DNA from: Phycisphaerae bacterium
Lineage (GTDB): Bacteria > Planctomycetota > Phycisphaerae > UBA1845 > Fen-1342
Reading direction: 5' to 3'
NCBI GenBank assembly: GCA_050115495.1
Contig: JASFQK010000058.1
Coordinates: 1-21,674 of the forward strand
DNA length: 21,674 nucleotides
Part shown: one piece after another, positions 1-17,055 of the stretch
Position numbering within the stretch: the stretch's first letter is position 1
Layout of the letters: each line of letters opens with the position of its first letter
Program-made: the position numbers and the translations under genes
The notes under the pieces: generated by a model
Database searches by the model: none
Told to the model about the DNA's origin: nothing
The model's input: only the letters and a program-made list of their open reading frames with translations

Positions 1-170
1 TCGCGTCGTTACTCTCGTGCATCGGCGTACTCCTCTGCCCAGCGTGGGCGGCTCGGAACCAATCTTGATCCCGAGAGTACGCCGCCTTTTTTCATCCCGC
101 CATCAACGAAATTCGGTTATAGCTCCCTGTCGTCCGCTTGATCTGTCAATCGTTCTTCCGCAGAAGTCGC

Positions 171-322: not shown

Positions 323-490
323 GTGTTCGATCCCGGCTGGGGGGGCCTCCGGTGCTCTCCGGTTGGGGCTTTGAAGCCGGGTGTTTGGGGGCAGCACCTT
401 CTGCCAACGCGAGTCGCCCGTGCGTGGCGTGAACCTCGCACGGGCGACCTGGAGGAGGGGACGCTTCAATGCGTCGCATTCAGACCATGA

Positions 491-1531
491 CTATCGTCGG
501 CGCAGCAAGCTCAGACCGCCCAGCGCCAGCAGCGTGAGCGTGGCGGGCTCAGGAACCTGCGCGACGCGAAAGCCCATAACTTGTGAGATCATACCTCCCC
601 AGCCGGCCGACATGCGACACCCTGCCAACATCGCCGCGGCGTTGGCGTCCAGCCAGAAAGAGCAAAAGCCCCGGATAGCGGGCTCGGAACCGTAGGGGCT
701 GTACTTCAGGGTCTCGACGAATTCCCATGCGTTCCCGCCCTGGTCATACGTGCCGTAGGGGCTGGCGGACAGAGAGAAATACCCGACCTCCGAGGTCCAG
801 TACGGTGCGCCGATCGTGACATCGCCGTCATAGTAGTTCGCCGAGTGCCCGGTATCACCTTCTGGATTCCCATTGTTCGGGAGATCAGGCAAAGAGAATT
901 GCATAGGCCACTGCCAGTAGTTCCCCGTCACGCCATCGTTCTTGTGATACGCGCTCTTGTACCACTCATCCTCGTTCGGAAGCACCCACGTGGCGTCCGG
1001 CTGACGCGTAACCTGCCGCAGTTGATCCGGCTCCGTGGCACCGTTCAGGTAGTACGAGCCGTCCTCCGTCGTGGACAGACCCTGCGCACCCGACGGCTGG
1101 CCGTTGTGCATCCAGTTCGCGAATCTGAGCGTGTCCTCCCACTGGATGTGCACTACGGGGCGCTTCGCCCAATCCTCTCCTACGCTGTACGTGTAGCTGC
1201 CGGGCGAGCCACTGCGGTGAATCCCGCATTGGAACTCGCCGCTACCCATGCCGGAGCTGTACAATCCATACGTGTCCGTCTGGGCCACGGCGTTCAGGAA
1301 CTCTGTGTACTCACTCGCCGTAATCTCATACGTGCCCATCTCGAACACGTAGTCCACCCCGCCACAGATGCGGTCTGGACCGAAGCCCCAGTAGGCACTC
1401 TCGCCAGACAGCTCTCCGGGGTTGCCCGGGTTGCCCACAGTGACGGTGTCAACGACGATCGTCGCCGACGCGCTGAGCACGCATCCGAAGACCGCCGCGA
1501 GCGTCACGAGACTGCCGATACACTTGAACAT
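491..1531 (-). CDS. FGE-sulfatase (SUMF1/CLec-fold) domain protein with signal peptide and PEP-CTERM anchor (FGE-1, type B core)
   Basis: 346 aa. Signal peptide ends ASA. Motifs TVGNPGN, MGTYEIT, RPVVHIQW, LPNEDEWYKSAY, YGTYDQGGNAWE, GFRVA, then VPEP-hydrophobic-RRR. SD GGAG precedes the ATG. Confidence 0.93.
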   Translation of the reverse strand: MFKCIGSLVTLAAVFGCVLSASATIVVDTVTVGNPGNPGELSGESAYWGFGPDRICGGVDYVFEMGTYEITASEYTEFLNAVAQTDTYGLYSSGMGSGEFQCGIHRSGSPGSYTYSVGEDWAKRPVVHIQWEDTLRFANWMHNGQPSGAQGLSTTEDGSYYLNGATEPDQLRQVTRQPDATWVLPNEDEWYKSAYHKNDGVTGNYWQWPMQFSLPDLPNNGNPEGDTGHSANYYDGDVTIGAPYWTSEVGYFSLSASPYGTYDQGGNAWEFVETLKYSPYGSEPAIRGFCSFWLDANAAAMLAGCRMSAGWGGMISQVMGFRVAQVPEPATLTLLALGGLSLLRRR

Positions 1532-1565
1532 GAGTTTCTCCTCTCCTCAAACATCATTCGACCAG

Positions 1566-1583
1566 TGGCTGGGCACCCAGTCA
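1566..1583. promoter_or_regulatory. Conserved palindrome 35 nt upstream of the FGE-1 start
   Basis: TGGCTGGG-CA-CCCAGTCA (one mismatch). Same motif and spacing as at 5815, 7006 and 11251. Confidence 0.6.
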
Positions 1584-1645
1584 TGCTGATCGGACTCCTC
1601 CGCTCGTACGCCCGGCTCAGCCGCCGGCGGCGTACGGTCCAATCC

Positions 1646-1680
1646 ACAGCACACGGCGCCTTCCCTACGCCGTGTGCTGT
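1646..1680 (-). terminator. 13-bp stem-loop just downstream of S8-a (terminator or mRNA-stabilising hairpin)
   Basis: ACAGCACACGGCG-9 nt-CGCCGTGTGCTGT, a perfect inverted repeat with no U-tract. Homologous to 7087-7115. Confidence 0.55.
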
Positions 1681-1691
1681 CTTGCTGTACA

Positions 1692-4535
1692 TCAACCGCC
1701 CGTGATCAGAGCCACGAACGGGCCGATGTCGAAGTTGTTCACTTCGCCGTCGCCGTTGACGTCGCCTGCCAGGCGATTGCAGTCCGGATACTGCTCGGCG
1801 TACCCGGCGGGGTCGGTAATCGCCAGCACGAACGGGCCGATGTCGAAGTTGTTCACGTTGCCGTCGCAGTTCAGGTCGCCCGGCGTGTAAGGGCATTCCT
1901 CCTCGATCAGCAGCGTCATCTGCTTCGCATCAGCCCGACCGAACGAGTCGATCACACGGAAGTATGGCTGATACGTACCGAACGCAGTCGGCGTACCCAT
2001 CAGACAACCGTCGGTTGTCAGATACATGCCCTCCGGCAGCGGATTCGGCTGGACGATCTCGAGCGAATCGGCATCGGTGAGGTTGGCGGCACCATCGTAC
2101 GCGCTGAGCAGATAGTGCACGCCGTCGCCGGCGGAGATGCCGACGGTGGGCGTCATGTTCGTGTTGCTTGAGCCGTAGTGGAAGTAGATGGCGCCGGTTT
2201 CGGTAAGCGTGCACGAGAAGTCGGCCTGGTTCGCGCACGGGTAGTGCCGGGCATTCCATCGGAAAGTGACCTCGCCAGCCACCGATGCGTCGATGTAGAT
2301 GCCGGTGTCGACGGTACAGTCGGTCTCCCAGTCATCCCACAACGGGGCGATGCGAATGTTGCTGAGCAGCTCGGTCGTGGTGTTGCTGCCGTCGCTGCTC
2401 GCGTCCGCACTGAAGTCGAGGTAACCGTTGCTGCTCGCGTACACCCCGCTGTACGGCTGGTTGAAGAACCAGAACGTAAACGGCAGCGCATATGGCCATT
2501 TGCCGTCATCCGCGTGCCACTCCATGGCCATACCGACCTCGGCGAAGAGGCTGGTGCCAAGATCGTGTTCCACATACGCGTCGCCCACGGCGGAGAACGT
2601 CAGCGCGGGCTGCCCCTGATCCACCTCGATATGGATGGGCGCGTATGGGGCGTTCAGACAACCGCTCGGGATACTCTCGGTCGTGATGGTCGGCGGACCG
2701 TACGCGGTAAGGATGGTCACCGTCGCCGGCTCGGACTCGCCGCCGTCCGGCGGCACGCCACCGTCATCGGCGGCGAACTGGAAGTCCTCGATGCCGTAGT
2801 AACCGCCGCTCGGGGAGTAGATCACAGCATTGCCGTGGTCGGACAACGTGTAGGGCAGATCCGCAGGCTGAATCACATAGCTGTTGCCGGCGTCGATCAG
2901 GTCCTGGCCGGGTAGTGAGTGGATGATGTAGGTCAGCGGGCCGCCGGGTTCACCATCCCGGTCAATCGCTACCAGCTCGATCTCCAATGCGGTATCGACG
3001 GAGGTGTCGTGGCTTGCGTCGTAAGCCGTCGGGGGCCTCAGGCCACAGCGCGACTCGGCCAGCCGCACGGCCTCGTAGGCATCGACAAGGCCGTGGCCGT
3101 ACCACGCGGGCGGGCCCTCCAGATCCAATGCGCTGTCGTACATGACCTGTTTGACCTCTTCGGGGGTGAGGTAGGGACAGGCCTGGAGTATCAGCGCCAC
3201 AACGCCCGCGACGTGCGGCGTGGCCATTGACGTGCCATCGTAAGAGTCATAGCCACCCGGCACGCTGGAGCGCACCTGCACACCCGGCGCTGAGAGTTCC
3301 GGCTTGGAGGCCACACTGCCATCGGGCGTGCAGTAGCTCGGGCCCTTCGACGAGAAGCTCGCCAGCGGATAGCCTTCCGTGTTGGCGTCGATCGCAGCTA
3401 CCGCACACGTTCGGTATCCGTCTGTGGCGCGGTCCGCCGGACGGCGGAGCGAGTAATAGTCGGGTCCTTCATTGCCGGCCGCGAATAGGATCACACATCC
3501 GGCCGCCTCGCAGGCGTCCAGGTAGGCCCAGAAGGCGTCGTTGCAGGGCTCATTGTACGGCGGGACGTCGTGATACGAGGCAATGCCCCACGAGTTCGAG
3601 CAGACCTGTGGGACATCCCAGGCGGTGGTCGGGTCGCCATCGGGGTCGATCAGCCACTCGTAAGCCTCCATTACGTTCTCGGCCATCTCATAGCCACCGA
3701 CGCCGGTGCGATCGATGACGGCGGCTTGAATCCACTCTGCACCTGGGGCCACACCGATCTCATCGCCCGGCGCGCCGCCGCAAAGCGTGCCCATCGTGTG
3801 CGTTCCGTGTCCATTCCAGGCGAGATCCTGCGGGAAACTCCAACCGGTCACGGGATCGAAGAGCGCCCACTCGGGATGGTAGGCATAGCGAGCATCCAGC
3901 CCCCGCCAACGGCTGGCCAGCGCGTCGTGAGTGCCGTCGACGCCGGTATCGAGCGTCGCGACGAGGATGCCTTCGCCCGTGTAACCCAGGGCCCAGGCCT
4001 CCGGCGCGCGAATGGCCACCAACCCCGGCTCGGGCGTCCGCGGGCCGCACGGCTCGGGTCCGCCGAACTGCTCCTCAGTATTCAGTGAGGGCACGGGTTC
4101 GATCAACTCGATCGGGAAATTGGAGTATACGGTATCGACGTCGGGGTGCCGGGCGAGTTCGAGGAGCTCGGACTTCGTGGCGTCAACCGCGAACGCGTTG
4201 ACGATCCAGAAGGACCTGAAGCGCTCGACCTGACCGGCTGCCTCGAGCTGCGTGAGGTGGTCGAGCAGGTTCCCGCGGGTGGCCGTCGCCGTTTGCTGTA
4301 GCGCGGTCACCACCAACTCGTGTCGCTCCTGTCGCGACATCCGCTCGACGCGGAACTGCTGCATCATGGTGTCGAGATCGACCTGGTCCTTCAGGTAGAC
4401 CAGGGCCGAGATGGTATCGTCGGGGCCGGCGACATCCAGGACGTCCTGAAGACCTGGGTGGATGTCCCCAGCCCACACGGGCGTGGCCAATGCTGATACT
4501 ACCAGCAGCCCGCATAGGATTCGGCTTATTCTCAT
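1692..4535 (-). CDS. Secreted S8 subtilisin-like serine peptidase with propeptide, Ig-like and nidogen-like modules and C-terminal dockerin-like domain (S8-a)
   Basis: Catalytic motifs ATLDTG, HGTHTMG, AAGN, GTSMATPHVAG. Signal peptide MRISRILCGLL..PVWA. Start placed at ATG 4535 because GGAG lies 7 nt upstream (ORF track starts at 4580). C-terminus GDLNCDGNVNNFDIGPFV..GDVNGDGEVNNFDIGPFV. Confidence 0.93.
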   Translation of the reverse strand: MRISRILCGLLVVSALATPVWAGDIHPGLQDVLDVAGPDDTISALVYLKDQVDLDTMMQQFRVERMSRQERHELVVTALQQTATATRGNLLDHLTQLEAAGQVERFRSFWIVNAFAVDATKSELLELARHPDVDTVYSNFPIELIEPVPSLNTEEQFGGPEPCGPRTPEPGLVAIRAPEAWALGYTGEGILVATLDTGVDGTHDALASRWRGLDARYAYHPEWALFDPVTGWSFPQDLAWNGHGTHTMGTLCGGAPGDEIGVAPGAEWIQAAVIDRTGVGGYEMAENVMEAYEWLIDPDGDPTTAWDVPQVCSNSWGIASYHDVPPYNEPCNDAFWAYLDACEAAGCVILFAAGNEGPDYYSLRRPADRATDGYRTCAVAAIDANTEGYPLASFSSKGPSYCTPDGSVASKPELSAPGVQVRSSVPGGYDSYDGTSMATPHVAGVVALILQACPYLTPEEVKQVMYDSALDLEGPPAWYGHGLVDAYEAVRLAESRCGLRPPTAYDASHDTSVDTALEIELVAIDRDGEPGGPLTYIIHSLPGQDLIDAGNSYVIQPADLPYTLSDHGNAVIYSPSGGYYGIEDFQFAADDGGVPPDGGESEPATVTILTAYGPPTITTESIPSGCLNAPYAPIHIEVDQGQPALTFSAVGDAYVEHDLGTSLFAEVGMAMEWHADDGKWPYALPFTFWFFNQPYSGVYASSNGYLDFSADASSDGSNTTTELLSNIRIAPLWDDWETDCTVDTGIYIDASVAGEVTFRWNARHYPCANQADFSCTLTETGAIYFHYGSSNTNMTPTVGISAGDGVHYLLSAYDGAANLTDADSLEIVQPNPLPEGMYLTTDGCLMGTPTAFGTYQPYFRVIDSFGRADAKQMTLLIEEECPYTPGDLNCDGNVNNFDIGPFVLAITDPAGYAEQYPDCNRLAGDVNGDGEVNNFDIGPFVALITGG
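1713..1856. repeat. Identical 30-bp repeat encoding the two dockerin-like loops (copies 1713-1742, 1827-1856, 7147-7176, 7261-7290)
   Basis: CACGAACGGGCCGATGTCGAAGTTGTTCAC occurs four times and encodes VNNFDIGPFV on the minus strand. Confidence 0.9.
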
Positions 4536-4660
4536 GACTTCACTCCATCTGTGTAACGGCACTGCCGGAGACGCTGACATGAGAATGCGTCATCCAGCGA
4601 GATCGTGATTGTCTCGAACGGCTACGTTGAGCGAGCTTTGAAGTGTCACCCGCGCCCGCC

Positions 4661-4722
4661 CACCGCTGTTGGTCGGAGCAGCGGTGAGCAGGCGGCGAGC
4701 GACTCGGAGATGGACATTCTGC
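4661..4722. repeat. Intergenic hairpin-containing repeat downstream of FGE-2 (homologous to 5870-5931; hairpin related to 10107-10140)
   Basis: CACCGCTGTT-GGTCGG-AGCAGCGGTG stem, followed by AGCAGGCGGCGAGCGACTCGGAGATGGACATT, which closely matches the copy at 5870-5931. Confidence 0.75.
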
Positions 4723-4738
4723 GACGATCAGACGCGCG

Positions 4739-5782
4739 CTAGCGCCGACGCCACACAGCGACGCCGGCCAGCGCCAGCAGCGTGAGCGTAGCGGGCTCGG
4801 GAACCTGCGCGAGGCGGAAGCCCATAACGTCTACGGACGCACCCGACCAGCCGCCTTCGAAGCGAACCCCCGCCAACATCGCCGGGGCACCGAAGTCCAG
4901 CCAGTAGAAGCAGAAGCCCCGCATGATGGGGATTTCGTGCCCGGGGTCGCCTTCCAGGGTCTCGACGTATTCCCATGCGTTCCCGCCCTGGTCATACGTG
5001 CCGTACGGACTGGCGGACAGTGAGAAATACCCGACTTCCGAGGTCCAGTACGGCGGGCCGATCGTGGCATCGCCGTCACAGTAGTTTGCCGAGTGTCCGC
5101 TATCACCGTCTGGATTCCCATTGTCCGGGATATCAGGCATGGAGCATTGCACAGGCCACATCCAGTAGTTCCCCGTCACGCCATCGTTCTTGTGATACGC
5201 GGACTTGTACCACTCATCCTCGTTCGGAAGCACCCACGTGGCGTCCGGCTGACGCGTAACCTGCCGCAGTTGATCCGGCTCCGTGGCACCGTTGAGGTAG
5301 TACGAGCCGTCCTCCGTCGTGGACAGACCCTGCGCACCCGACGGCTGGCCGTTGTGCATCCAGTTCGCGAATCTGAGCGTATCCTGCCACTCGATGTGCA
5401 GTACGGGGCGCTTCGCCCAATCCTCTCCTACGCTGTACGTGTAGCTGCCGGGCGAGCCACTGCGGTGAATCCCGCATTGGAACTCGCCGGTACACATGCC
5501 GGGGCTGTACAACGCATACGTGTCCGTCTGGGCCACGGCGTTCAGGAACTCTGTGTACTGACCCGCCGTGATCTCATACTTGCCCATCTCGTACACGTAG
5601 TCTACCCCGCCACAGATGCGGTCTGGACCGAAGCCGTAGTAGCCTACTCCCGCCCCAGACAGTTCTCCGGGGTTGCCCGGGTTGCCCACGGTGACGGTGT
5701 CGACGACGATCGTTGCCGACGCGCTGAGCACGCATCCGAAGACCGCCGCAAGCGTCATGAGCCTGCCAACACACTTCAACAT
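4739..5782 (-). CDS. FGE-sulfatase domain protein with PEP-CTERM anchor (FGE-2, type B core)
   Basis: Start at ATG 5782 (MLKCVG..) after SD AAGGAG. Same FGE motifs as 491-1531. Ends VPEPATLTLLALAGVAVWRRR. Confidence 0.93.
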   Translation of the reverse strand: MLKCVGRLMTLAAVFGCVLSASATIVVDTVTVGNPGNPGELSGAGVGYYGFGPDRICGGVDYVYEMGKYEITAGQYTEFLNAVAQTDTYALYSPGMCTGEFQCGIHRSGSPGSYTYSVGEDWAKRPVLHIEWQDTLRFANWMHNGQPSGAQGLSTTEDGSYYLNGATEPDQLRQVTRQPDATWVLPNEDEWYKSAYHKNDGVTGNYWMWPVQCSMPDIPDNGNPDGDSGHSANYCDGDATIGPPYWTSEVGYFSLSASPYGTYDQGGNAWEYVETLEGDPGHEIPIMRGFCFYWLDFGAPAMLAGVRFEGGWSGASVDVMGFRLAQVPEPATLTLLALAGVAVWRRR

Positions 5783-5814
5783 GGATTTCTCCTTTCCGCT
5801 AGTGCCACACGACC

Positions 5815-5836
5815 AATGGCTGGACACCCAGCCATT
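5815..5836. promoter_or_regulatory. Conserved palindrome upstream of FGE-2
   Basis: AATGGCTGG-ACAC-CCAGCCATT, a perfect 9-bp inverted repeat at the same spacing to the ATG as the other copies. Confidence 0.6.
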
Positions 5837-5869
5837 CTGACCAGAATCCTTGCACCGCCCATGCCCACC

Positions 5870-5931
5870 CACCGCCGTTGATTACAACAGTGGTGAGCAG
5901 GTGGCGAGCGACTCAGAGAAGGACATTTGTG
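5870..5931. repeat. Intergenic hairpin-containing repeat downstream of FGE-3
   Basis: CACCGCCGTTG-ATTA-CAACAGTGGTG imperfect stem, plus a tail matching 4661-4722. Confidence 0.7.
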
Positions 5932-5948
5932 CAGTGGTCAAGTCGACG

Positions 5949-6971
5949 TTACCGTCGACGCCACACAGTGATGCCGGCCAAGGCGATCAGGGCAAGCGAA
6001 CTCGGCTCAGGCACCCGGGCCAGGCGGAACCCGACTTCGCAACGACCGTCATTCTGACCGTCAAGGTGAAAGGCAGACCACAGTGCGTACCAGTAGAAAT
6101 CGATCAGCATCGCAGCTTGTCCCCGAATGACTAGAGTCCCGGCTTGGGCCCCGTCGGAGATGATGCTCATTTCGAAGACATTGCCGCCTTGGTCGTATGT
6201 GCCGTAAGGGCTGGCAGATAAACTGAAATACCCGGCGGGTGTCGTGTAATACGGGGCCCCGATCGTCGCATCATAGCCGTCGATGTAGTTCGCCGAATTC
6301 CCGGTATCACCCTCAGGGTTTCCGTTATCCGGGATCGAGGGGAGGTCAGTGCCCATGGGGAAATCCCAGTAGTTCCCCGTCACGCCGTCGTTCTTGTGAT
6401 ACGCCGCCTTGTACCACTCATCCTCGGTTGGGAGCACCCACGTGGCGTTCGCCTGCCGAACGAGCGTAGTCGGATACTCGACCCCGTTCAGATAGTAAGA
6501 ACCATCTTCAGTGGTCGAGAGATCCTGTCCCCCGGTCGGCTGACCGTTGTGCATCCAGTTGGCAAACCGGGCGGCGTTTCCCAGAGTCAACCAGTTTACC
6601 GGCCGCATTGCCCAATCGTCCGAAACACTGTAGTGATACATGCCCTGCACCGTGTAGCGATTGATTCCGCAAGGGCACTCGGCGTTCCACATGAGCTCGT
6701 TGTACAAACCGTACGTGTCGAATCTCGCCACGGCGTTGAGGAACGCGGTGTACTGACCGGCGGTGATCTCGTACTTGCCGATGTCGTACACATAGTCCAC
6801 GGCGCCACAAATGCGGTCCGCCCCCAATCCGCCTGCACTCTCGCCGGACAACTCGCCGGTGTTTCCCGGATTGCCCACGGGGACGGTGTCAATGACGACC
6901 GCCGCCGACGCGCTGAGCACGCACCCGAAGACCGCCGCGAGCGTCACGAGCCTGCCAATACGCTCAAACAT
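5949..6971 (-). CDS. FGE-sulfatase domain protein with PEP-CTERM anchor (FGE-3, type A core)
   Basis: 340 aa. Signal peptide, IGKYEIT, RPVNW, LPTEDEWYKAAY, YDQGGNVFE, VGFRLARVPEP..WRRR. SD GGAG. Confidence 0.93.
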   Translation of the reverse strand: MFERIGRLVTLAAVFGCVLSASAAVVIDTVPVGNPGNTGELSGESAGGLGADRICGAVDYVYDIGKYEITAGQYTAFLNAVARFDTYGLYNELMWNAECPCGINRYTVQGMYHYSVSDDWAMRPVNWLTLGNAARFANWMHNGQPTGGQDLSTTEDGSYYLNGVEYPTTLVRQANATWVLPTEDEWYKAAYHKNDGVTGNYWDFPMGTDLPSIPDNGNPEGDTGNSANYIDGYDATIGAPYYTTPAGYFSLSASPYGTYDQGGNVFEMSIISDGAQAGTLVIRGQAAMLIDFYWYALWSAFHLDGQNDGRCEVGFRLARVPEPSSLALIALAGITVWRRR

Positions 6972-7005
6972 GAGTGTCTCCTCTCCGCTAGTGCCACACG
7001 ACCAG

Positions 7006-7023
7006 TGGCTGGGCTCCCAGCCA
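7006..7023. promoter_or_regulatory. Conserved palindrome 35 nt upstream of FGE-3
   Basis: TGGCTGGG-CT-CCCAGCCA, a perfect inverted repeat. Confidence 0.6.
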
Positions 7024-7086
7024 TGCTGACCGCAATCCTCAGCTCGTACGCCTCGCTCGGCCGTCGGTGACGCACTGTCCGGTCCA

Positions 7087-7115
7087 GCACACGGCGCTCC
7101 ACGAGCGCCGTGTGC
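7087..7115 (-). terminator. 13-bp stem-loop downstream of S8-b
   Basis: GCACACGGCGCTC-CAC-GAGCGCCGTGTGC, a perfect inverted repeat with no U-tract. Confidence 0.55.
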
Positions 7116-7125
7116 GACCTCGGGC

Positions 7126-9969
7126 TTAGCCGCCCGTGATCAGGGCCACGAACGGGCCGATGTCGAAGTTGTTCACTTCTCCGTCGCCGTTGACGTCGCC
7201 CGCCAGGTGGTTGCAGTCTGGATACTGCTCGGCATACCCGGCGGGATCGGTGATCGCCAGCACGAACGGGCCGATGTCGAAGTTGTTCACGTTGCCATCG
7301 CAGTTCAGATCGCCCGGCGTGTAGGGGCATTCCTCCTCGATCAGCAACGTAATCTGTTTCGTGTCGGCGCGGCCGAACGAGTCGACCACGCGGAAGAACG
7401 TCTCATACAGACCGCTCGAGGTCGGCGTGCCCGTCAGGCAGCCGTCGGTCGTCAGATGCATGCCATCAGGCAGCGGTATCGGCCTCAGCTCGAGCGAGTT
7501 GGCATTCGTAAGGCTGGTGGCCCCGTCGTACTGACACAGCAGGTAACGCTCGCCGTCGCCGGCGGAGATGCCGACCGTGGGCGTCATGCCGGTGTTGGTC
7601 GGGCCGTAGTGGAAGTAGATGGCGCCGGCCTGCGTGAGGGTGCACGAGAAGTCGCCCTCCTCGTCGCACGGGTATTGCTCGGCCTGCCAGCGGAACGTGA
7701 CCTGGCCTGCGACCGAGTCGTCGATGTAGATGTCGTCGCCACCACCGCACTCGGTCTCCCAGTCGTCCCAGAGCGTGGCGATCCGCACGTTGCTGAGCAG
7801 TTCGGCCGTAGTGTTCGTGCGGTCGCTGCCCATGCCGGACGCGAAGTCGAGGAAACCGTTGGTGTGCACGTATACGGTGCTGTACGGCTGATCGAAGAAC
7901 TGGAACTCGAACGGCAGCGTGTACGCCCAGTTAGCATCGTCCATGTGCCACCCCCGGGCGATACCGACCTCGGCGAAGAGGCTGGTGCCCAGGTCGTTCT
8001 CTGCATACGCGTCCGTCGCCACGCTGAAGGTCAACTGCGGCTGGCCTTCGCTTACCTCGATCCAGAAGGGCGTATACGGTGCATTCAGACAGCCGTTCGG
8101 GAAGCTCTCGGTAACGATCACCGGCGGACCGTAGAAGGTCAGGACGGTTACCGTGCCCAGGTCGGACTCGCCGCCTTCCGGCGGGGTGCCGCCGTCATCG
8201 GCCGTGAACTGGAAGTCCTCGACGCCGTAGTAACCGCCGGCGGGAGAGTAGACCACGACGTTGCCATGGTCGGAGAGCGTGTAGGGTAGCTCTGTGGCCT
8301 GAATGACGTGGCTGTTGCCGGGGTCGATCAGATCCTGAGTGGGCAGCGACTGGATGATGTACGACAGCGAGCCGCCGGGCTCACCGTCGCGGTCGACGGC
8401 AACCAGTGCGATCTCGAGTGGGGTATCGACGGCGGTCTCGAAGCTGCCGTCGTAGGTATACGGCGGGGCTGGGCTGCACGCCAACTCGGCCAGCAGCACG
8501 GCTTGGTACGCATCGATCATACCGTAACCGTAGGTGTTGTCCTTGCCCGCAGGGCCCAGGTCGAGTGCGCTATCGTAGAGAATCTGTTTCACGTCGTCGG
8601 GGAAGAGCTGAGGACAAACCTGGAGGATGAGCGCCACAACGCCGGCGACGTGCGGCGAGGCCATCGACGTGCCGTTCATGTTGCCGTATCCGCCACCAGG
8701 CACGCTGGAACGTACATTCATGCCGGGTGCGGCGATGTCGGGTTTGATGGCGATGCTGCCGTCGGGCGTGCAGTAGGTCGGGCCACGCGACGAGAAGTAC
8801 GCGATGGGAAACTCGGCGTCGTGGGCGTCCACGGCGGCGACGGCGCACGTCCGGTAATCGTCGGAAGCGCGGTCCCCCGGACGTCCAACGGTGTTGCTGC
8901 CTGGGCCCGAGTTGCCGGCGGAGAAGAGGATCACGCAGCCGGCTGTCTCGCAGGCATCCAGGTAGGACCAGAAGCCGTCGTTGCAGGGCTCGTTGTACGG
9001 CGGAACGTTGTGGCCCAGGACGATGCCCCACGAATTCGAGCAAACCCACGGCACATCCCAGACAGTCGCCGGGTTGCCATCGGGGTCGATCAACCACTGG
9101 AAGGCCTCGATCGCATCCTCGATGGTCTCCCAAAGACCGACGCGGTCGATGACGGCGGCCTGAATCCATTCGGCTCCCGGGGCGACACCGACCTCGTCGC
9201 CGGGGGCGCCGCCGCAGATCGTGCCCATGGTGTGCGTGCCGTGTGTATCGCCGTCATGCGGGAAGGTCCAGGAGGTTACGGGATCGAAGAACGCCCACTC
9301 GGGATTGAAGGCGTACCGTTCATCGAGACCACGCCAGCGACTGGCCAGCGCCGGGTGCGTGCCGTCGACGCCGGTATCGAGCGTCGCGACGAGGATGCCT
9401 TCGCCGGTGTAGCCCAGGGCCCAGGCCTCAGGTGCGCGAACAGCGACCAGCCCAGGCTCGGGCGTTCGCGGACCGCACGGCTGAGGTTCCTCAGGCTCCA
9501 CTTCCGCGTCACCTGTCGGCACGGGTTTGATCAGTTCGATCGGGTAGTTGAAGTAGATCGTGTCGACGTCGGGGTGGTTGGCAAGCTCGACGATCTCGGC
9601 CTTCGTGGCGTCGACCGCGAAGGCGTTGACGATCCAGAAGGACCTGAAACGCTGAATGCGGCCCTCGGTCTGGAGCTTCGCCAGATGGTCGCGCAGATTG
9701 CCGCGAGTGGACGTCGCCGTCTCATGTAACGCCGTCACGGCCAACTCGTGCCGCGCCTGTCGGGATGCCCGCTCCGCTTTGAGCTGCGCGGTCATGAGAT
9801 CGAGGTCGACCTGGTGGTTGAGGTAGACCAGGGTGGAGACGGTTTCATTCGGGTCGGCGGCATCCAGGACGTCCTGAAGACCGGGATGGATGTTACCCGC
9901 CCATGCCGGGATGGCCATTGCCGACAACAACACCAACAGCCGTACACAGACGACACTTCCTGTACGCAT
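7126..9969 (-). CDS. Secreted S8 subtilisin-like serine peptidase with dockerin-like C-terminus (S8-b), full-length paralog of S8-a
   Basis: ATLDTG, HGTHTMG, SAGN, NGTSMASPHVAG; colinear with 1692-4535. ATG 9969 is preferred over GTG 9978 because of the spacing from GAGGAG. Confidence 0.93.
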   Translation of the reverse strand: MRTGSVVCVRLLVLLSAMAIPAWAGNIHPGLQDVLDAADPNETVSTLVYLNHQVDLDLMTAQLKAERASRQARHELAVTALHETATSTRGNLRDHLAKLQTEGRIQRFRSFWIVNAFAVDATKAEIVELANHPDVDTIYFNYPIELIKPVPTGDAEVEPEEPQPCGPRTPEPGLVAVRAPEAWALGYTGEGILVATLDTGVDGTHPALASRWRGLDERYAFNPEWAFFDPVTSWTFPHDGDTHGTHTMGTICGGAPGDEVGVAPGAEWIQAAVIDRVGLWETIEDAIEAFQWLIDPDGNPATVWDVPWVCSNSWGIVLGHNVPPYNEPCNDGFWSYLDACETAGCVILFSAGNSGPGSNTVGRPGDRASDDYRTCAVAAVDAHDAEFPIAYFSSRGPTYCTPDGSIAIKPDIAAPGMNVRSSVPGGGYGNMNGTSMASPHVAGVVALILQVCPQLFPDDVKQILYDSALDLGPAGKDNTYGYGMIDAYQAVLLAELACSPAPPYTYDGSFETAVDTPLEIALVAVDRDGEPGGSLSYIIQSLPTQDLIDPGNSHVIQATELPYTLSDHGNVVVYSPAGGYYGVEDFQFTADDGGTPPEGGESDLGTVTVLTFYGPPVIVTESFPNGCLNAPYTPFWIEVSEGQPQLTFSVATDAYAENDLGTSLFAEVGIARGWHMDDANWAYTLPFEFQFFDQPYSTVYVHTNGFLDFASGMGSDRTNTTAELLSNVRIATLWDDWETECGGGDDIYIDDSVAGQVTFRWQAEQYPCDEEGDFSCTLTQAGAIYFHYGPTNTGMTPTVGISAGDGERYLLCQYDGATSLTNANSLELRPIPLPDGMHLTTDGCLTGTPTSSGLYETFFRVVDSFGRADTKQITLLIEEECPYTPGDLNCDGNVNNFDIGPFVLAITDPAGYAEQYPDCNHLAGDVNGDGEVNNFDIGPFVALITGG

Positions 9970-10106
9970 GGCTTTCACTCTCCTCTTGTTTCGCAGACGC
10001 CACCCGAGATCCTCAGGCCCCTTACGCGGCCGGCCCCGGGGGCGGTGACAGTGTCCCCCTCGCTACCGCCCGCGGCCCGCGGATGTCCGAGCCTTTCACC
10101 TCGCCT

Positions 10107-10140
10107 CACTCACCGCTGTCGGCTGGGACAGCGGTGAGTG
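10107..10140 (-). terminator. 14-bp stem-loop downstream of FGE-4
   Basis: CACTCACCGCTGTC-GGCTGG-GACAGCGGTGAGTG, a perfect inverted repeat with no U-tract. Confidence 0.55.
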
Positions 10141-10167
10141 GGGCTACGGGTCCCGGTGCAGAACGTG

Positions 10168-11214
10168 CTACCGGCGACGCAACAGACTGAGGCTGGCCAG
10201 GCCCAGAAGGGCGAGCGAGCTCGGCTCAGGCACCCGGGCGAGGCGGAAACCAACCTCGGAACGCTCGCTGTCGTTGTCCATCCCATTTCCGACGCGCATC
10301 CATGAGATCAGTCCGGCATTGAAGAAGTCCAAGAGAGCGGCGCTCTGACCTCGCACCACCATCGAGCCGAGAGTGGAGTCAGACTGTTCGCACATCTCGA
10401 ACACGTTGCCGCCCTGGTCGTACGTGCCGTACGGGCCGGCGGACAGTCCGAAATAGCCGACCTCGGTCATCCAGTACGGAGCGCCGATCGTGGCGTCGCC
10501 GTCAACCACGTCGAGGAAGTTCCCCGAGCGTCCGGAGTCACCACCCGGAACGCCGTTGTCGGGCAGTTCAGGGTAATCAAAGCCATCGCGGAAGGGGAAA
10601 TCCCAGTAGTTCCCCGTAGCGCCGTCGTTCTTGTGGTATGCGGCCTTGTACCATTCGTCCTCGCTGGTGACCACCCACGTGGCGTTCGCCGTGCGCGTCA
10701 CCACGCCCAGCTCCTCGCGCGTCATGGCACCGTTCAGGTAGTACGAGCCATCTTCGGTGGTCGCGAGCCCCTGCGGGCCGGTCGGCTGACCGTTGTGCAT
10801 CCAGTTGGAGAATCGGGCAGCATCTCCCCATGAGACCCAGTTCACCGGCCGCTTCTCCCAGTCTTCCCCTACGCTGTAGGTGTAGTTGCCCGGCGTACCG
10901 CTACGCGAGATTCCACAGCGAACGTCGCAGGTCCACATCGTCGGGCTGTACAGGCCATACGTGTCCGTGGCCGCGACGGCGTTCAGGAACTCAGTGTACT
11001 GGCCGGCGGTGATCTCGTACTTGCCGATGTCGTACACGTAGTCCACGGCGCCGCAGACGCGGTCATCGCCCATCCCGCCGACACTCGAGCCGCTGAGCTC
11101 TCCTGTGTTCCCCAAATTCCCTACGGTGACCGTGTCGACGAGCACGGTTGCCGACACACTTCCGACACAAAGGCAGACGGCCGCGAACATCATCAGTCTT
11201 CCAACGCACTTCAT
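10168..11214 (-). CDS. FGE-sulfatase domain protein with PEP-CTERM anchor (FGE-4, type A core)
   Basis: Start at ATG 11214 (MKCVGRLMM..) after GGAG. RPVNWVSWGDAARFSNW, SEDEWYKAAY, YDQGGNVFE, VGFRLARVPEPSSLALLGLASLSLLRRR. Confidence 0.93.
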   Translation of the reverse strand: MKCVGRLMMFAAVCLCVGSVSATVLVDTVTVGNLGNTGELSGSSVGGMGDDRVCGAVDYVYDIGKYEITAGQYTEFLNAVAATDTYGLYSPTMWTCDVRCGISRSGTPGNYTYSVGEDWEKRPVNWVSWGDAARFSNWMHNGQPTGPQGLATTEDGSYYLNGAMTREELGVVTRTANATWVVTSEDEWYKAAYHKNDGATGNYWDFPFRDGFDYPELPDNGVPGGDSGRSGNFLDVVDGDATIGAPYWMTEVGYFGLSAGPYGTYDQGGNVFEMCEQSDSTLGSMVVRGQSAALLDFFNAGLISWMRVGNGMDNDSERSEVGFRLARVPEPSSLALLGLASLSLLRRR

Positions 11215-11699: not shown

Positions 11700-12908
11700 A
11701 TGGCACAGGGAAAGCCCATTTCGACCGGCCCCGCATCATTCGAGCAGCAGACGGCCGAGACGATTGCCCGTGTTCGCCGAGCGTTCGCCGACATTGTCCG
11801 GGCTCTGCCCCAGCCGATCACGCGGGCCTGCGAACTTCATCAGACGCTCCAGATCGACAAAGTGCTCGGCTGGCGGGTCTATAACGTGATTCGCTGCTCG
11901 GATCCGTTCGCGGCTGCCCGCTACGTGCCGGGCACCAGCGGCGTGAAGATCTTCCTGCGGGCCGCCCAGAAGCGGGGCGTGCCGCCGGCCCTGACCGAAA
12001 CTGCCACGGCTGCGTTATCGGACTACCAGAAGCTGCAACGTGTGCACGCCGGCAACCGCAAGCGTCTCGACATGCTGCTGGCCGCCCACTCGGACGAAGG
12101 ACGGGCGGAAGTGGACATCGCGCATCGCCGACTGGCCTTCGAGGGTAACTGCTACATCTGGGGCGCGTCGGCCGATGTGCAGTTCCGAACGACGTTCATG
12201 GGGTTCTCGCAGACGTCCGGCGAATTGGATATCGCCACGTTGGGTGGCTTGATCGGGTTGCAGCGTCTGCGTCCCGACGTGCGCTGGCCGCTGGGTAAGG
12301 CCACCTGTACGAATGATGCGGGGGAGGCGATACCGGCGTACACGAACGAGCCGATCTACGACGTGCAACACCCGGACGAAACCGCCCTGAAGCTGTTCAT
12401 GAGTCATCCCCAGCCACGGATCGAGTGCCGCCGCACGGAGCAGGTGCTGAAATGGGAGCTACTGCCCGGTCCCGTGGGCAAGACGGGGGCAGTGAGCTGT
12501 GTCACCGGGGAGATCATGCGGCGCTGCGGCCCCATTCGTCGGCGCGAGGGTGAGGCTTCGGCCACGTACGTTACGCGCGTTCACACGCCGGCCGAGCTGC
12601 TCATCGTCGACCACATCGTTCACCGGGATTTGTTTGGCCCGTTGCAGCACTCTGTGTCGGTCTACGGCGGCATCGTCGACGGCACACGAGGCGAGAGCGA
12701 CCGCGTGGAGGTCCGAGAGACGGTTCAGCTCCTGGGCTCAGTGGACGACCTGCTGCATACGCCGGAGATCCCGCGGTATACGGAAATGACGGGGCATGTG
12801 TTCGAGCGACTCGGCTGGGACCCCGGCCAGTTCGACATCTACCGCCTTCGGCTGGAATTCCCCATTATGCTGAGCGAAGTCCGTCTGACTCACCCGTTGC
12901 GCGGATAG
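11700..12908 (+). CDS. Hypothetical protein, putative transcriptional regulator (N-terminal HTH-like segment)
   Basis: 402-aa ORF with GC3-rich codons and no signal peptide or TM segment. RACELHQTLQIDKVLGWRVYNVI resembles a helix-turn-helix. Divergent from the operon. Function is inferred. Confidence 0.7.
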   Translation: MAQGKPISTGPASFEQQTAETIARVRRAFADIVRALPQPITRACELHQTLQIDKVLGWRVYNVIRCSDPFAAARYVPGTSGVKIFLRAAQKRGVPPALTETATAALSDYQKLQRVHAGNRKRLDMLLAAHSDEGRAEVDIAHRRLAFEGNCYIWGASADVQFRTTFMGFSQTSGELDIATLGGLIGLQRLRPDVRWPLGKATCTNDAGEAIPAYTNEPIYDVQHPDETALKLFMSHPQPRIECRRTEQVLKWELLPGPVGKTGAVSCVTGEIMRRCGPIRRREGEASATYVTRVHTPAELLIVDHIVHRDLFGPLQHSVSVYGGIVDGTRGESDRVEVRETVQLLGSVDDLLHTPEIPRYTEMTGHVFERLGWDPGQFDIYRLRLEFPIMLSEVRLTHPLRG

Positions 12909-14099: not shown

Positions 14100-15788
14100 C
14101 TACGTTGCCGGCGGGTTCCCGCCGTAGGCGAGACTGCCCAGGTACATCAGCAGGCTGATTCCCATAAGGCCCAGGACGCCGCCGGCTACGGCGAAGACGA
14201 CATAGAGCATGCCGGAGAGGCGGGTGTTCCGAGTGACCAGCACGTAGACGACGTAGGGGCAGCCCGCGGATACGAAACCGATCGGATAGGCAATCAACCG
14301 GTAGAAGTTGGTGAACAGCTCGGCGAAGCCGCGCGGCGCGCGGAATATGATGCTGAACATCCACTCGATCGGGTATAGCGGCAGACAGAGAGCCTGAATG
14401 ATCTTGTCCAGCACCTGGTGTCCGCCGCCGGAGTAGGCTGCGATCCGCCCCCAGCGGAACGACGCGCCGACAAACGCACCGGCGAAGACCCATAGGATGA
14501 AGACGACCACCTTGCCGAAGAAGCCCGGCGCGCTGCCGGCGGAGTTCAGGCCGAAAAGCACACCGACCACGCCGCCGCCGATGGCCCAGCGAACGCCCTC
14601 GCCCAGCAGCGCTTCCATGTCGGAGGGCATTGAGGCAGGCCGGTTGGTAAGGCGTCGCCACCAGGCCGACTTCTGGCGCGGGAACTTCTCGCGATGCTCG
14701 GCGGCTCGGGCAGGATCGAAGGAGAAGGACTGCAGGGCGGCGAAGGCTTCGCGCTTGAGGGCGCTGAACGTAATGGGGTTGCCGATCGCGATCGCCTGGA
14801 AGAGCGTCTTGCCCTGGACGAAGACATGCGAGAGCATCCGCATGGGCTCGTCGCTCTCCGGGTCGAGGCCTTCGTACTCGATGGCCATGGCCGGCAGGCC
14901 GGCCACGGTGACGCGGGTGGTGTTGATGCGGTGATACTGCTTCACCTCCTGCCGGTAGGCTTCGTCGATGCCCTCGCACAGATCCTCGAAGCTCAGGTTC
15001 CATTCGCTGGTGACGATCTTGAGCACGCCGAGGTTTCCGTGCTCGACGGCGACGTCGGCGCCGAACTCCTTTTCGGAAGCCTGGTTCATGCGGATCCAGC
15101 CGCCGGTCGGCAGGGCGAGGGAGTAGTCGAGGCTGTCGCTGGCCACGATCGCTCCCGGCTCGCTCACGCTGGGCGTGGCGGGTGCTTCGGTTGTGGAGGT
15201 AGTGCCGGTCGGCCCGGCCGATGATGTGGTCTTGGTCTTTGTCGTGCCCGCGTTCCCGGTAGTCTGCGTGGTGTCGCGCGAGGCGTCGTCGGCCGGCACG
15301 TCGAACTCGGCGTCGCAGCAGAGGCAGACGACGCGCTGAGCGCGAAGCAATGGGGGGCCGTCATACGACTCGCCGCAGGCCGGGCAGGCGAGCTTGATCA
15401 CTTCGGCGTCGGCCCGCTGCGCGAGGCTTCGCAGTCGTTCGGCGGTCTGGTCGGCCAGGGCCTGCTCGCCCGCAACCCGTTTGAGAAAGTCGAGGATCCG
15501 AACGAAGACCGGGCTCTGGTCGTTGGCGCGACGGCGCTCGGCATCCAGCGCGCGGCGGAGCCGCAACTCGGCCCGCAGCTTGTCCCCGGCCTTGAGATAG
15601 ACGATGCCGAGGTTGGCCTGGGCCTGGATGGTGGCGGGATGTTCCTCGCCGAGCGCGCTGGCCGTCACGGCTGCGTGCTTCTCGGCAAAGAGGAGCGCCG
15701 CCGCGTAGCGCTGCGCCTTGACCAGCTTTGCCACGCGCGCACTCAGCGTGTTGGGGTCCATCGTCATCGATTCACCCGTTGACTCCAT
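14100..15788 (-). CDS. Multidomain membrane protein: N-terminal TPR, zinc ribbon, Thr-rich linker, PsbP/DcrB-like domain, C-terminal TM helices
   Basis: LGEEHPATIQAQANLGIVY is a kinesin-light-chain-type TPR. CPACG..CLCC. TVAGLPA..EY resembles the PsbP/DcrB fold (tentative). Four or five hydrophobic C-terminal segments. SD AAGGAG. Confidence 0.8.
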   Translation of the reverse strand: MESTGESMTMDPNTLSARVAKLVKAQRYAAALLFAEKHAAVTASALGEEHPATIQAQANLGIVYLKAGDKLRAELRLRRALDAERRRANDQSPVFVRILDFLKRVAGEQALADQTAERLRSLAQRADAEVIKLACPACGESYDGPPLLRAQRVVCLCCDAEFDVPADDASRDTTQTTGNAGTTKTKTTSSAGPTGTTSTTEAPATPSVSEPGAIVASDSLDYSLALPTGGWIRMNQASEKEFGADVAVEHGNLGVLKIVTSEWNLSFEDLCEGIDEAYRQEVKQYHRINTTRVTVAGLPAMAIEYEGLDPESDEPMRMLSHVFVQGKTLFQAIAIGNPITFSALKREAFAALQSFSFDPARAAEHREKFPRQKSAWWRRLTNRPASMPSDMEALLGEGVRWAIGGGVVGVLFGLNSAGSAPGFFGKVVVFILWVFAGAFVGASFRWGRIAAYSGGGHQVLDKIIQALCLPLYPIEWMFSIIFRAPRGFAELFTNFYRLIAYPIGFVSAGCPYVVYVLVTRNTRLSGMLYVVFAVAGGVLGLMGISLLMYLGSLAYGGNPPAT

Positions 15789-15864: not shown

Positions 15865-17055
15865 TCAGTCGTCGTTATGGCCACCGTCGTCATAGCCCCC
15901 GTCGTCGTATCCACCTGTGTCGTATCCGCCGGCATCGTAGGAGTCGTCCGGTTCGCAGCCGTCGTAGCTTCCCTCGTCGGCGCCGCCTGCTTCCTCGTCG
16001 TGGCCGCTTTCGTAGCCACCATCGAAGCCATAGCCCCCATCGTCGCCCGCGGGCCCCTCGACATCGCCACCGTGGAACTCCTCCTCCTCCGCGGAGTCCT
16101 CTTCGAGCGGCTGATCCCATTCACAGCCGACCTCGTCGGTCTCCGCGTCCCCGTCGTCCTTGGGTCCGAAGCCCTCATCGTCATACTCGGCGTCGTCCTC
16201 GACCTCGCCCGCCTCATCGTCCTCGTCACCGTCGTCGTCGAAGCCCACCTCGAGGCTCTCATCGTTCTCCTCGAGTTCCTCGTCCTCCAACTCATCGGCG
16301 TCAGGATCGAGGAAGCCGGTCAGCTCCTCCTCATCCGCCTCGTCGTCGAGGTCCTCGCCGTCTTCTCCGTGTTCCTCGTCGCCGTCCTCGTCCGGGACAT
16401 CCTCGTCTTCGTCGTCCGTGGCGGTCTCTTCATCATCGGCGTCGTCCTCATCCTCCAGCGACTGCTCATCGCTCGCAGCCTCTTCGGACACTTCGACGCC
16501 GAGGTCGGCAGCCAGATCCTCAAGGCTGCTCACACCGGCGGCTTCCAGGACGGTCGGCAGTATTGCGGGATCCTGATGCAGGTTGGCCAACAGCGCGGTG
16601 GCCTCTTCGTGGCTGTACCCTTGTTGTTCCAGGCCTTCGAGCAACGCGTCGGCCATCCGGCGACCGTCTTCGCAGCGAACGATGCGCTGGCCGTAGTATT
16701 CGTCCGTCAGCAGTTCGGTGAGACCCTCCTCCAGGTTGCCGATCGGCAACTGCTCGCTGAGCTCGTTCCACTCCTGAATATCACCGTGGTAGTGGACCAG
16801 CTCGTGGAACAACGTGTCCGCCTCGTGATGCCGCCCCATAGTGATTTCGTCGGCGTCGTCGTATTCCGAGTGGTACCAGCGGTAGAAGCCGTTGAGGCCG
16901 TCCAGGTCCGAGTCACTCCAATTGACGGTTGGCGAGTTCGAGTCGTCAGAGGGAACGTCAAGGAACTGGCGCACTTCGTCATCCACCTGACGCACCCGGT
17001 CATCGAGGTGCTCCAGGATCCGCCGCTCGCGATCCTCGAGGGATTCCTCGCTCAT
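15865..17055 (-). CDS. Highly acidic protein with HEXXH zinc-metallopeptidase-like motif and D/E-rich tail
   Basis: Start at ATG 17055 (MSEESLED..), ATGA overlap with the upstream gene. TLFHELVHYH followed by LEEGLTE. About 200 aa of D/E low-complexity sequence ending in GGYD repeats. Confidence 0.8.
   Translation of the reverse strand: MSEESLEDRERRILEHLDDRVRQVDDEVRQFLDVPSDDSNSPTVNWSDSDLDGLNGFYRWYHSEYDDADEITMGRHHEADTLFHELVHYHGDIQEWNELSEQLPIGNLEEGLTELLTDEYYGQRIVRCEDGRRMADALLEGLEQQGYSHEEATALLANLHQDPAILPTVLEAAGVSSLEDLAADLGVEVSEEAASDEQSLEDEDDADDEETATDDEDEDVPDEDGDEEHGEDGEDLDDEADEEELTGFLDPDADELEDEELEENDESLEVGFDDDGDEDDEAGEVEDDAEYDDEGFGPKDDGDAETDEVGCEWDQPLEEDSAEEEEFHGGDVEGPAGDDGGYGFDGGYESGHDEEAGGADEGSYDGCEPDDSYDAGGYDTGGYDDGGYDDGGHNDD

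Follow-up and report, generated by a model that had tools for sequence, protein, structure and literature searches.

Two PEP-CTERM lectin-fold paralogs of a Phycisphaerae bacterium as probable orphans of a diversity-generating retroelement

The stretch analysed here (the window) comprises 21,674 nucleotides (nt) of contig JASFQK010000058.1 from a Phycisphaerae bacterium, the genome of which (G000) was assembled to 5.97 Mb in 85 contigs and is 92% complete. An array on its minus strand, in the order F4-S8b-F3-F2-S8a-F1 (span 491-11214), encodes two subtilases, S8a and S8b, and four paralogous proteins, F1-F4, of 340-348 aa with a hydrophobic N-terminal leader, a formylglycine-generating enzyme (FGE)-sulfatase domain and a PEP-CTERM tail. 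The differences between F1 and F2 cluster in a C-terminal segment that corresponds to the variable repeat (VR) of diversity-generating retroelements (DGRs) standing behind relatives of the F family, and this former variable repeat is probably diverging under diversifying selection. F1 and F2 behave like the after-life of a DGR target; on the four features tested, namely reverse transcriptase (RT), template, Avd and codon compatibility, they do not belong to an active DGR. In the following, C-numbers denote contigs of G000, L-numbers loci fetched around relatives of the F family, other G-numbers further genomes, P-numbers family proteins and X1-X3 sequencing runs.

The account that we favour, and hold to be rather probable as a whole, takes F1 and F2 as orphans of DGR targets whose array descends from a DGR-made orphan, whose products would be exported and anchored through an exosortase (after the PEP-CTERM scheme in the available text of Haft 2006, PMC1569441), whose core underwent conversion and whose surfaces were selected for different ligands. 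F1 and F2 would be recent duplicates (dS about 0.15) in a tandem array of exported, PEP-CTERM-tagged binders with the FGE/C-type lectin (CLec) fold. A DGR cassette would once have rewritten the ancestral target, followed by loss of avd, RT and template repeat (TR) to leave an orphan. After the F1/F2 split, gene conversion would have re-homogenised a core of ~330 nt, and the formerly DGR-rewritten codons would have changed more quickly than synonymous sites, through ordinary point mutations and small indels. The selected ligands would most likely be an extracellular glycan, protein, phage or neighbouring cell. The features of F1 and F2 on which this account depends are as follows.

491..1531, minus strand: F1, 346 aa, with signal peptide, FGE-sulfatase domain (CLec fold) and PEP-CTERM signal (PF03781, E 6e-17; PF07589)
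4739..5782, minus strand: F2, 347 aa, sister paralog of F1 (82.5% at the amino acid level, sister support 1.0)
914..1241, minus strand: near-identical core of F1, 7/328 nt differing from F2, a probable gene-conversion tract
5162..5489, minus strand: near-identical core of F2, counterpart of F1 914..1241
548..682, minus strand: former variable repeat of F1, residues 284-328, homologous to the DGR VR/TR of relatives L015, L070, L184 and L187
4796..4930, minus strand: former variable repeat of F2, counterpart of F1 548..682
674..706, minus strand: F1 loop before the repeat, residues 276-286 (F2 4922-4954), 9/11 residues differing, mostly outside the known TR
1388..1402, minus strand: F1 variable patch, residues 44-48 (F2 5636-5653, one extra codon)
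1241..1255, minus strand: F1 variable patch, residues 93-97 (F2 5489-5503)
875..913, minus strand: F1 variable patch, residues 207-219 (F2 5123-5161)
494..559, minus strand: PEP-CTERM sorting signal of F1, directly after the former variable repeat

An earlier note, made from the sequence alone, had described F1 and F2 as a near-identical scaffold with hypervariable loops. Recounting 914-1241 against 5162-5489 gave exactly its 7 differences in 328 nt, and all five codon pairs, the anchors RG, WLD, R, GW and GFR and the three other patches that it named were present. Near-identity is a fitting description of this core (2% divergent) but not of the remaining scaffold, which is ~10% divergent (21/222 nt at residues 24-97 and 21/207 nt at residues 207-275); the longest identical runs reach 90 nt. 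At residues 276-317 (window 581-706, F2 at +4248), 52/126 nt differ, a clustering reached by none of 10,000 codon permutations. The proposed pattern of codon positions 1 and 2 changed with position 3 retained did not generalise, since the differences fall 19/18/15 on the three positions and only 7 of the 25 changed codons are of this type, the quoted pairs being a selected subset. Eight codons differ at all three positions, and some of these at residues 276-286 are probably better explained by two compensating 3-nt indels.

The link of this segment to DGRs, which the earlier note had drawn from the fold, was established independently by its match to the variable repeat of relatives. The F family has 15 paralogs in G000, and of 8,000 entries scored at least 5,115 are related to it at E<=0.001, annotated as 'formylglycine-generating enzyme'; those carrying taxon names are mostly Phycisphaerae and other Planctomycetota. 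A complete target-avd-RT-TR order was found behind family members at L015, L070, L184 and L187 in four other genomes, L184 lying in the single-contig genome G076. TR/VR mismatches were located at template A in 19/21 cases for L015 (plus one 3-nt indel), 15/16 for L070, 15/18 for L184 and 21/22 for L187, and most of the exceptions sit at the 3' end of the repeat, as would be expected of the initiation of mutagenic homing sequences IMH/IMH*. Avd scored above the NCBIfam cut-off in both cassettes tested. The TR, nearly the same in three of the four cassettes, contains 14 AAC codons; it begins shortly before the RG anchor and runs as far as the PE of PEP-CTERM, which corresponds to F1 residues 284-328. 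At the protein level, P0064 and P0076 are identical everywhere but inside the repeat. Judged by these cassettes, the F family was shown to be a DGR target in Planctomycetota relatives, where the cassettes would rewrite the predicted binding site of a PEP-CTERM-tagged lectin-fold protein. In L015 (12695-12900), L070, L184, L027, L040 and L187, in all six cases, the TR is followed by a conserved non-coding segment that is probably structured, and similar segments occur in L026, L058 and L077.

Broken cassettes were commoner than intact ones, with avd shortened, RT internally deleted or the TR alone behind the gene. The repeat set held 155 distinct repeats from 164 rows after removal of duplicates and of rows with <13 aligned AAC codons; 2 of these have a full DGR set behind them, 10 have parts and 143 have none in the fetched, often short, flank. 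A class-wide sample gave Avd matches in 20/301 genomes at 21 loci; 8 of these stand behind a gene of the F family, the cassette being complete in 2, interrupted by the end of a contig in 1 and left with a truncated avd in 5. At L027 (5113-5550), L040 (11020-11206) and L067 (11019-11355), internal deletions fuse the target trailer to the RT end or to the TR, and these targets with a TR and no RT are possibly trans-dependent mini-DGRs. In L072, L048, L010, L143, L060 and others, family genes end right after VP with the PEP-CTERM helix lost, some of them with a one-base frameshift at the repeat 3' end.

The repeats of cassette-less genes still carry the trace of the template. At least 12 codons ending in C (NNC) were counted in 64/155 repeats against 1.2 expected, a count inflated because the aligner scores those C's. 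In a protein-anchored set of 106 genes, four-fold codons at AAC columns end in C in 247/352 cases (70%), compared with 41% in scaffolds. Within G000, the leader of one C29 paralog is 88% identical to that of L015 over 98 nt, and one C53 paralog retains a cassette trailer (81% over 42 nt). Intact cassettes, remnants and the AAC fossil are shown by these data, and their likely order is that cassettes were often truncated or deleted, leaving the mutagenised target as an orphan. A well-supported orphan clade (L012, L055, L079, L119, L134, L145 and L167) carries nearly the same former repeat in different genomes, ending SSD.FSD.GFR, a candidate for a domesticated variant under purifying selection.

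F1-F4 themselves appear to be old orphans in which homology to the template has been lost. They match the TR at only 0.55-0.58 of non-A sites (F1/F2 0.57) with 6-8/14 NNC codons (F1/F2 6-7), a match as low in only 3/155 other VRs. An unrooted FastTree phylogeny of the scaffold (172 rows, repeat excluded) placed F1-F4 in one clade (0.994), nearest by tree distance to the intact target L184. Orthologs of this clade were not found outside G000, the best identities being about 55-62%. The remaining G000 paralogs are scattered across the tree, which tentatively suggests several arrivals.

The case for selection comes from comparing nonsynonymous (pN) with synonymous (pS) differences per site. Background pS between F1 and F2, outside core and tail, was 18/127 (0.14); the same comparison gave about 0.5-0.6 for other F pairs and 0.40 for S8a/b. 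In the repeat as defined by the template (residues 287-326), pN was 0.27 (p 0.012 against background pS). Depending on two placements of an insertion, 10 (pN 0.56, p 3e-6) or 8 (pN 0.41, p 0.0015) of the 14 template-variable codons were changed, with 4/22 anchors changed (pN 0.12) and a local synonymous divergence of 3/18, equal to the background. The variable positions of F1/F2 are also those of high entropy family-wide (p 4e-9). The repeat is the ligand-binding site of this fold according to the available text of Handa 2016 (PMC5006420) and Wu 2018 (PMC5758913). Diversifying selection on a binding surface, as the earlier note proposed, is the best reading (pN 0.41-0.56 against pS 0.14), but the segment taken alone gave a Nei-Gojobori dN/dS of 1.45 with p 0.21 (two sequences).

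Further observations weigh against this reading. The 95% interval of the 3/18 local synonymous sites is 0.04-0.41, and an older, near-neutral segment has p 0.11 at pS 0.33. VR pN exceeded scaffold pS at uncorrected p<0.05 in only 4 of 33 close pairs, F1/F2 being the strongest of the four, and other low-NNC pairs gave ratios of about 1 (the L170 pair, L055/L145) or below 1 (L134/L079). With regard to descent, nodes above the F1-F4 clade have modest support, and the C53 remnant gene is not sister to F1-F4.

Another explanation keeps the same DGR ancestry without positive selection; in it the repeat would be older than the scaffold around it, either spared by repeated conversion or derived from an unassembled sister copy, and would have diverged under relaxed constraint. 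Conversion and mosaic flanks are visible in the array, F2 being similar to F3 in its tail and 3' flank. With the end of the contig at a distance of 490 nt from F1, further copies may be absent from the assembly. The local synonymous sample is small, and in other orphan pairs VR pN roughly equals pS. Nevertheless, the F1/F2 repeats have common derived anchors that are absent from F3, F4 and all other paralogs, no donor copy was found among the 15 paralogs, and 3/18 synonymous changes would be improbable at the age implied by the template-variable codons (p 0.03 at 0.41; 0.0007 at 0.56). We consider this explanation unlikely.

Improbable, too, is a DGR whose template co-evolved with F1/F2 and lies in an unassembled part of the genome, acting or having recently acted in trans, with the differences as its output plus drift. 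The earlier note had raised action in trans as its less likely option; its suggestion holds for ancestry, as the family is a real DGR target elsewhere, and is not supported for action on F1/F2. The incompleteness of G000 leaves room for such an element, remote targets are documented in the available parts of PMC5758913 and PMC7517822, and a target-avd-RT array (L222, not counted as a further cassette) lies in G346, of the same GTDB family as G000. However, the proposed genome search for an RT and a template repeat differing only at adenines, carried out on the assembly, found neither a DGR-type RT nor such a repeat. The three RVT_1 matches of G000 are a group II intron maturase, a retron-like RT and a plant-type long terminal repeat (LTR) element on a small contig; a repeat search around them found no TR/VR repeats, and the family's DGR RT as query matched only the group II intron. 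Ungapped scanning of both strands of the whole assembly with six windows each of F1 and F2 found no template with A-only mismatches (best non-self match, 19-25 non-A mismatches per 93 nt), and a planted template was recovered as positive control. TR-peptide, TR-DNA and AAY-run searches of G000 turned up only the paralogs' own repeats. The best NF033474 (Avd) match in G000 reached 22 bits against a cut-off of 80, and the family's Avd as query gave 0 matches. X1 contigs span both repeats with no alternative letters, a weak argument as contigs drop rare variants.

The codons of F1/F2 point the same way. Of the 14 changed codon pairs in the repeat, both members end in C in 4 and in a pyrimidine in 7, and a purine is the last base of 12/28 codons. 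The 28 include several codons for M, E or Q, residues that are not obtainable from AAC/AAT (for the AAC rule and its 15 residues, see the available text of Wu 2018, PMC5758913). To give rise to these codons, a template would have to contain five AAA codons and an in-frame TAA stop, unlike the family TR with its 14 AAC codons. Differences involving A amount to 23/52 in the segment and 25/49 in the scaffold, without adenine bias, and the divergence extends upstream of the TR span (9/11 residues). By this codon evidence, the F1/F2 differences are not DGR output. As to the candidates set aside in these searches, a weak Avd-like match on C16 was rejected, with no RT or TR nearby and a resemblance to a four-helix-bundle protein. 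The retron-like RT (C8:78930-79973, 348 aa) scores under all NCBIfam cut-offs (best retron St85, 117 of 235 bits), the plant-type LTR retrotransposon of C79 is probably contamination, and C55:9400-9580 is an unusually A-rich purine tract.

The public annotation would make these proteins FGE-family enzymes, oxidases or sulfoxide-synthase-like, whose active-site pocket would have diverged to accept new substrates. The AlphaFold model of F1 (pLDDT 87.2, the predicted local distance difference test score) gave a Foldseek probability of 1.00 for the FGE-type CLec fold, and its structure matches over residues ~22-328 were led by TvpA (Z 21.8; root-mean-square deviation 3.3, 236 aligned), CarF (21.4) and PvdO (20.7); the modelled fold is FGE-type C-type lectin, with TvpA tied with CarF at the top. 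The Pfam FGE-sulfatase domain, structural matches to FGE, CarF, PvdO and EgtB within about 1-2 Z units of TvpA, and the subtilases of the array, which suggest an extracellular metabolic unit, would fit an enzyme. Nonetheless, no catalytic residues are conserved among 106 members in the segment that forms the pocket, and family members are DGR targets in which that very site is randomised. A conserved copper-binding cysteine pair follows RGGS in catalytic FGE; no invariant cysteine was present in the segment after RGGS among the 106 aligned members. An enzymatic role is very doubtful. For F1-F4 as exported binders, PF07589 scored above cut-off in all four, G000 encodes one exosortase (PF09721, E 5e-49) and the signal peptide of F1 was judged from sequence and the modelled helix 5-16. 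The predicted features of F1-F4 are those of a PEP-CTERM/exosortase substrate: PEP, hydrophobic helix and basic tail, an N-terminal signal and a genomic exosortase.

Gene conversion, a cause of the 98% identical core that the earlier note did not propose, is probable on present evidence. Same-residue codons were changed synonymously in 3/106 cases in the core and 24/180 elsewhere (p 0.003, boundaries picked post hoc). The core codons are not constrained, because other F pairs differ there at 23-31 of ~50 synonymous sites. In a scan with correction, the signal had p 0.03 at the 100-codon window, 0.21 at 80 and 0.21-0.34 for shorter windows, and significance at only one of three window sizes counts against conversion, which we still regard as the likely origin of the homogenised F1/F2 core. 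It is scarcely credible that the contrast is an assembly artefact from a collapsed or bubble-popped repeat: although the assembly is of short reads, the identical runs are long and Logan lists no F2-specific contig over part of the core, the seven core differences persist, the F1 and F2 repeats lie on separate exact contigs, and such an artefact could not create C-terminal divergence. The X1 Logan contig over 914-1387 has a depth of 23.1 against 15-16 in single-copy neighbours; 201/444 of its 31-mers are common to F2, predicting 22.7-25.1 for two copies, and the identity of the core therefore looks genuine. The source sample of the window may be X1; X2 and X3 contain only small shares of it, and none of the runs listed for it is an RNA run.

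Extended to the whole family, the favoured account leads to a wider proposal, put forward tentatively, in which the DGR cassette would serve as a gene-birth device at surface-protein loci. The cassette would arrive at or recombine into such loci, randomise an exosortase-anchored binder and then lose avd, RT and TR, so that fixed binder repertoires accumulate and old orphans evolve on. The 15 binders of G000 would be such a repertoire, and F1/F2 would evolve in the manner of a multigene family of immune receptors: conversion would preserve the scaffold, and selection would push the former repeat past the 15 residues that a DGR can write. The template hardly varies between genomes, so that each orphan should be datable by its decay from it, and the fate of DGR-made variants after DGR loss (fixed, decayed or further selected) becomes testable. 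The pair alone, the clearest post-DGR one among the 33 close pairs, is a modest finding; the sequences further tie a very large misnamed family to DGRs, with variable surface binders as its probable role, and would add PEP-CTERM sorting to the display routes of DGR products.

The remaining features of the array and its flanks are the following.

5949..6971, minus strand: F3, older paralog in the array
10168..11214, minus strand: F4, older paralog, first gene of the array
1692..4535, minus strand: subtilase S8a with I9 propeptide, between F2 and F1 (72% to S8b at the amino acid level, dS 0.61)
7126..9969, minus strand: subtilase S8b, between F4 and F3
11700..12908, plus strand: divergent gene of 402 aa without Pfam/NCBIfam match, closest paralog (75%) on C53
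1532..1600 (F1), 5788-5850 (F2) and 6972-7041 (F3), minus strand: hairpin-bearing leader, weaker in F4 and the C53 paralog
403..490, minus strand: 3' trailer of F1 with hairpin, homologous to two places on C53, one of them just behind the DGR-remnant paralog

The C53 remnant gene adjoins the closest paralog of the 11700-12908 gene (next best 55%). Its leader forms a similar hairpin, and behind the gene come a decayed F1-like tail and then the F1 trailer. The window and this part of C53 are sister loci because the divergent gene, the leader hairpin, the F1-like tail and the trailer are common to both. The arrangement at C53:6823-7095, a DGR trailer remnant and then a decayed PEP-CTERM tail with an F1-type trailer, looks as if a younger DGR-made gene had replaced an F1-like gene in place.

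The 11700-12908 gene has 54 tblastn matches in G000 at E<=1e-10, many adjoining F-family genes. At the subtilase ends (window 1692-1900 and 7126-7330), the last ~60 residues are 98% identical between S8a and S8b and the remainder ~70%; this twin GD.N.DG-type tail, which we take to be dockerin-like, recurs on many G000 proteins. An open reading frame at window 15865-17727 (minus strand), without Pfam match, contains the HExxH-like motif HELVH and, after it, a low-complexity tail that is very acidic. At the far contig end (19674-21487) lie the C-terminal part of an IS66 transposase (minus strand) and a Replic_Relax gene (plus strand), beside tetratricopeptide repeat genes at 14100-15788 and 18027-19436. 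Window 1-100 contains a short palindromic repeat, with very high summed depth in the first bin of X1, which suggests that the assembly was interrupted beside F1 by a dispersed repeat.

Several known systems are close to the F family. Its Pfam domain and fold are those of the FGE/SUMF1-EgtB-PvdO family, the source of the public names. These names are probably domain-level only; different from that family, no catalytic residues are conserved in the F-family pocket segment. DGRs with FGE-type CLec targets (Treponema TvpA, Bordetella phage Mtd and the surface-displayed Legionella LdtA) share the fold modelled for F1 and the RG...GFR repeat, and relatives of F1 further share the target-avd-RT-TR order, the AAC-rich template and the A-specific mismatches. 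Different from TvpA, Mtd and LdtA, the F-family target ends in PEP-CTERM after the repeat and not as a lipoprotein or tail fibre, the window has no DGR parts, and F1/F2 no longer obey a template. Membrane-anchored cellular DGR targets are common according to the available part of Roux 2021 (PMC8144416). The tables of Dore 2024 (PMC10907252) list Planctomycetota DGR RTs, including one from a Phycisphaerae isolate, and so the relatives' cassettes may sit undescribed in published catalogues; in the available passages of that work, PEP-CTERM appears only as a neighbouring-gene label. A PEP-CTERM-anchored DGR target was not found in the literature searched, which included part of the Roux 2021 and Dore 2024 supplements and had most subscription papers outside its coverage. 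The PEP-CTERM/exosortase proteins of Haft 2006 have, as here, a signal peptide, a C-terminal PEP-CTERM, lineage-specific paralog expansion and an exosortase; unlike for the F family, the available text mentions no retroelement source of diversity.

The cyanobacterial remote targets and non-diversified CLec paralogs of Vallota-Eastman 2020 (PMC7517822), as far as its available text goes, are likewise dispersed paralogs with remnant TR-VR homology, and it was suggested there that, after selection of a variant, the parts needed for diversification are removed. Those paralogs are mostly cytosolic signalling proteins with the DGR still in the genome, whereas the F proteins are predicted to be exported and no DGR was detected in G000. 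Beyond them, the F family shows graded truncation remnants and an orphan repeat that appears to diverge outside the NNC code.

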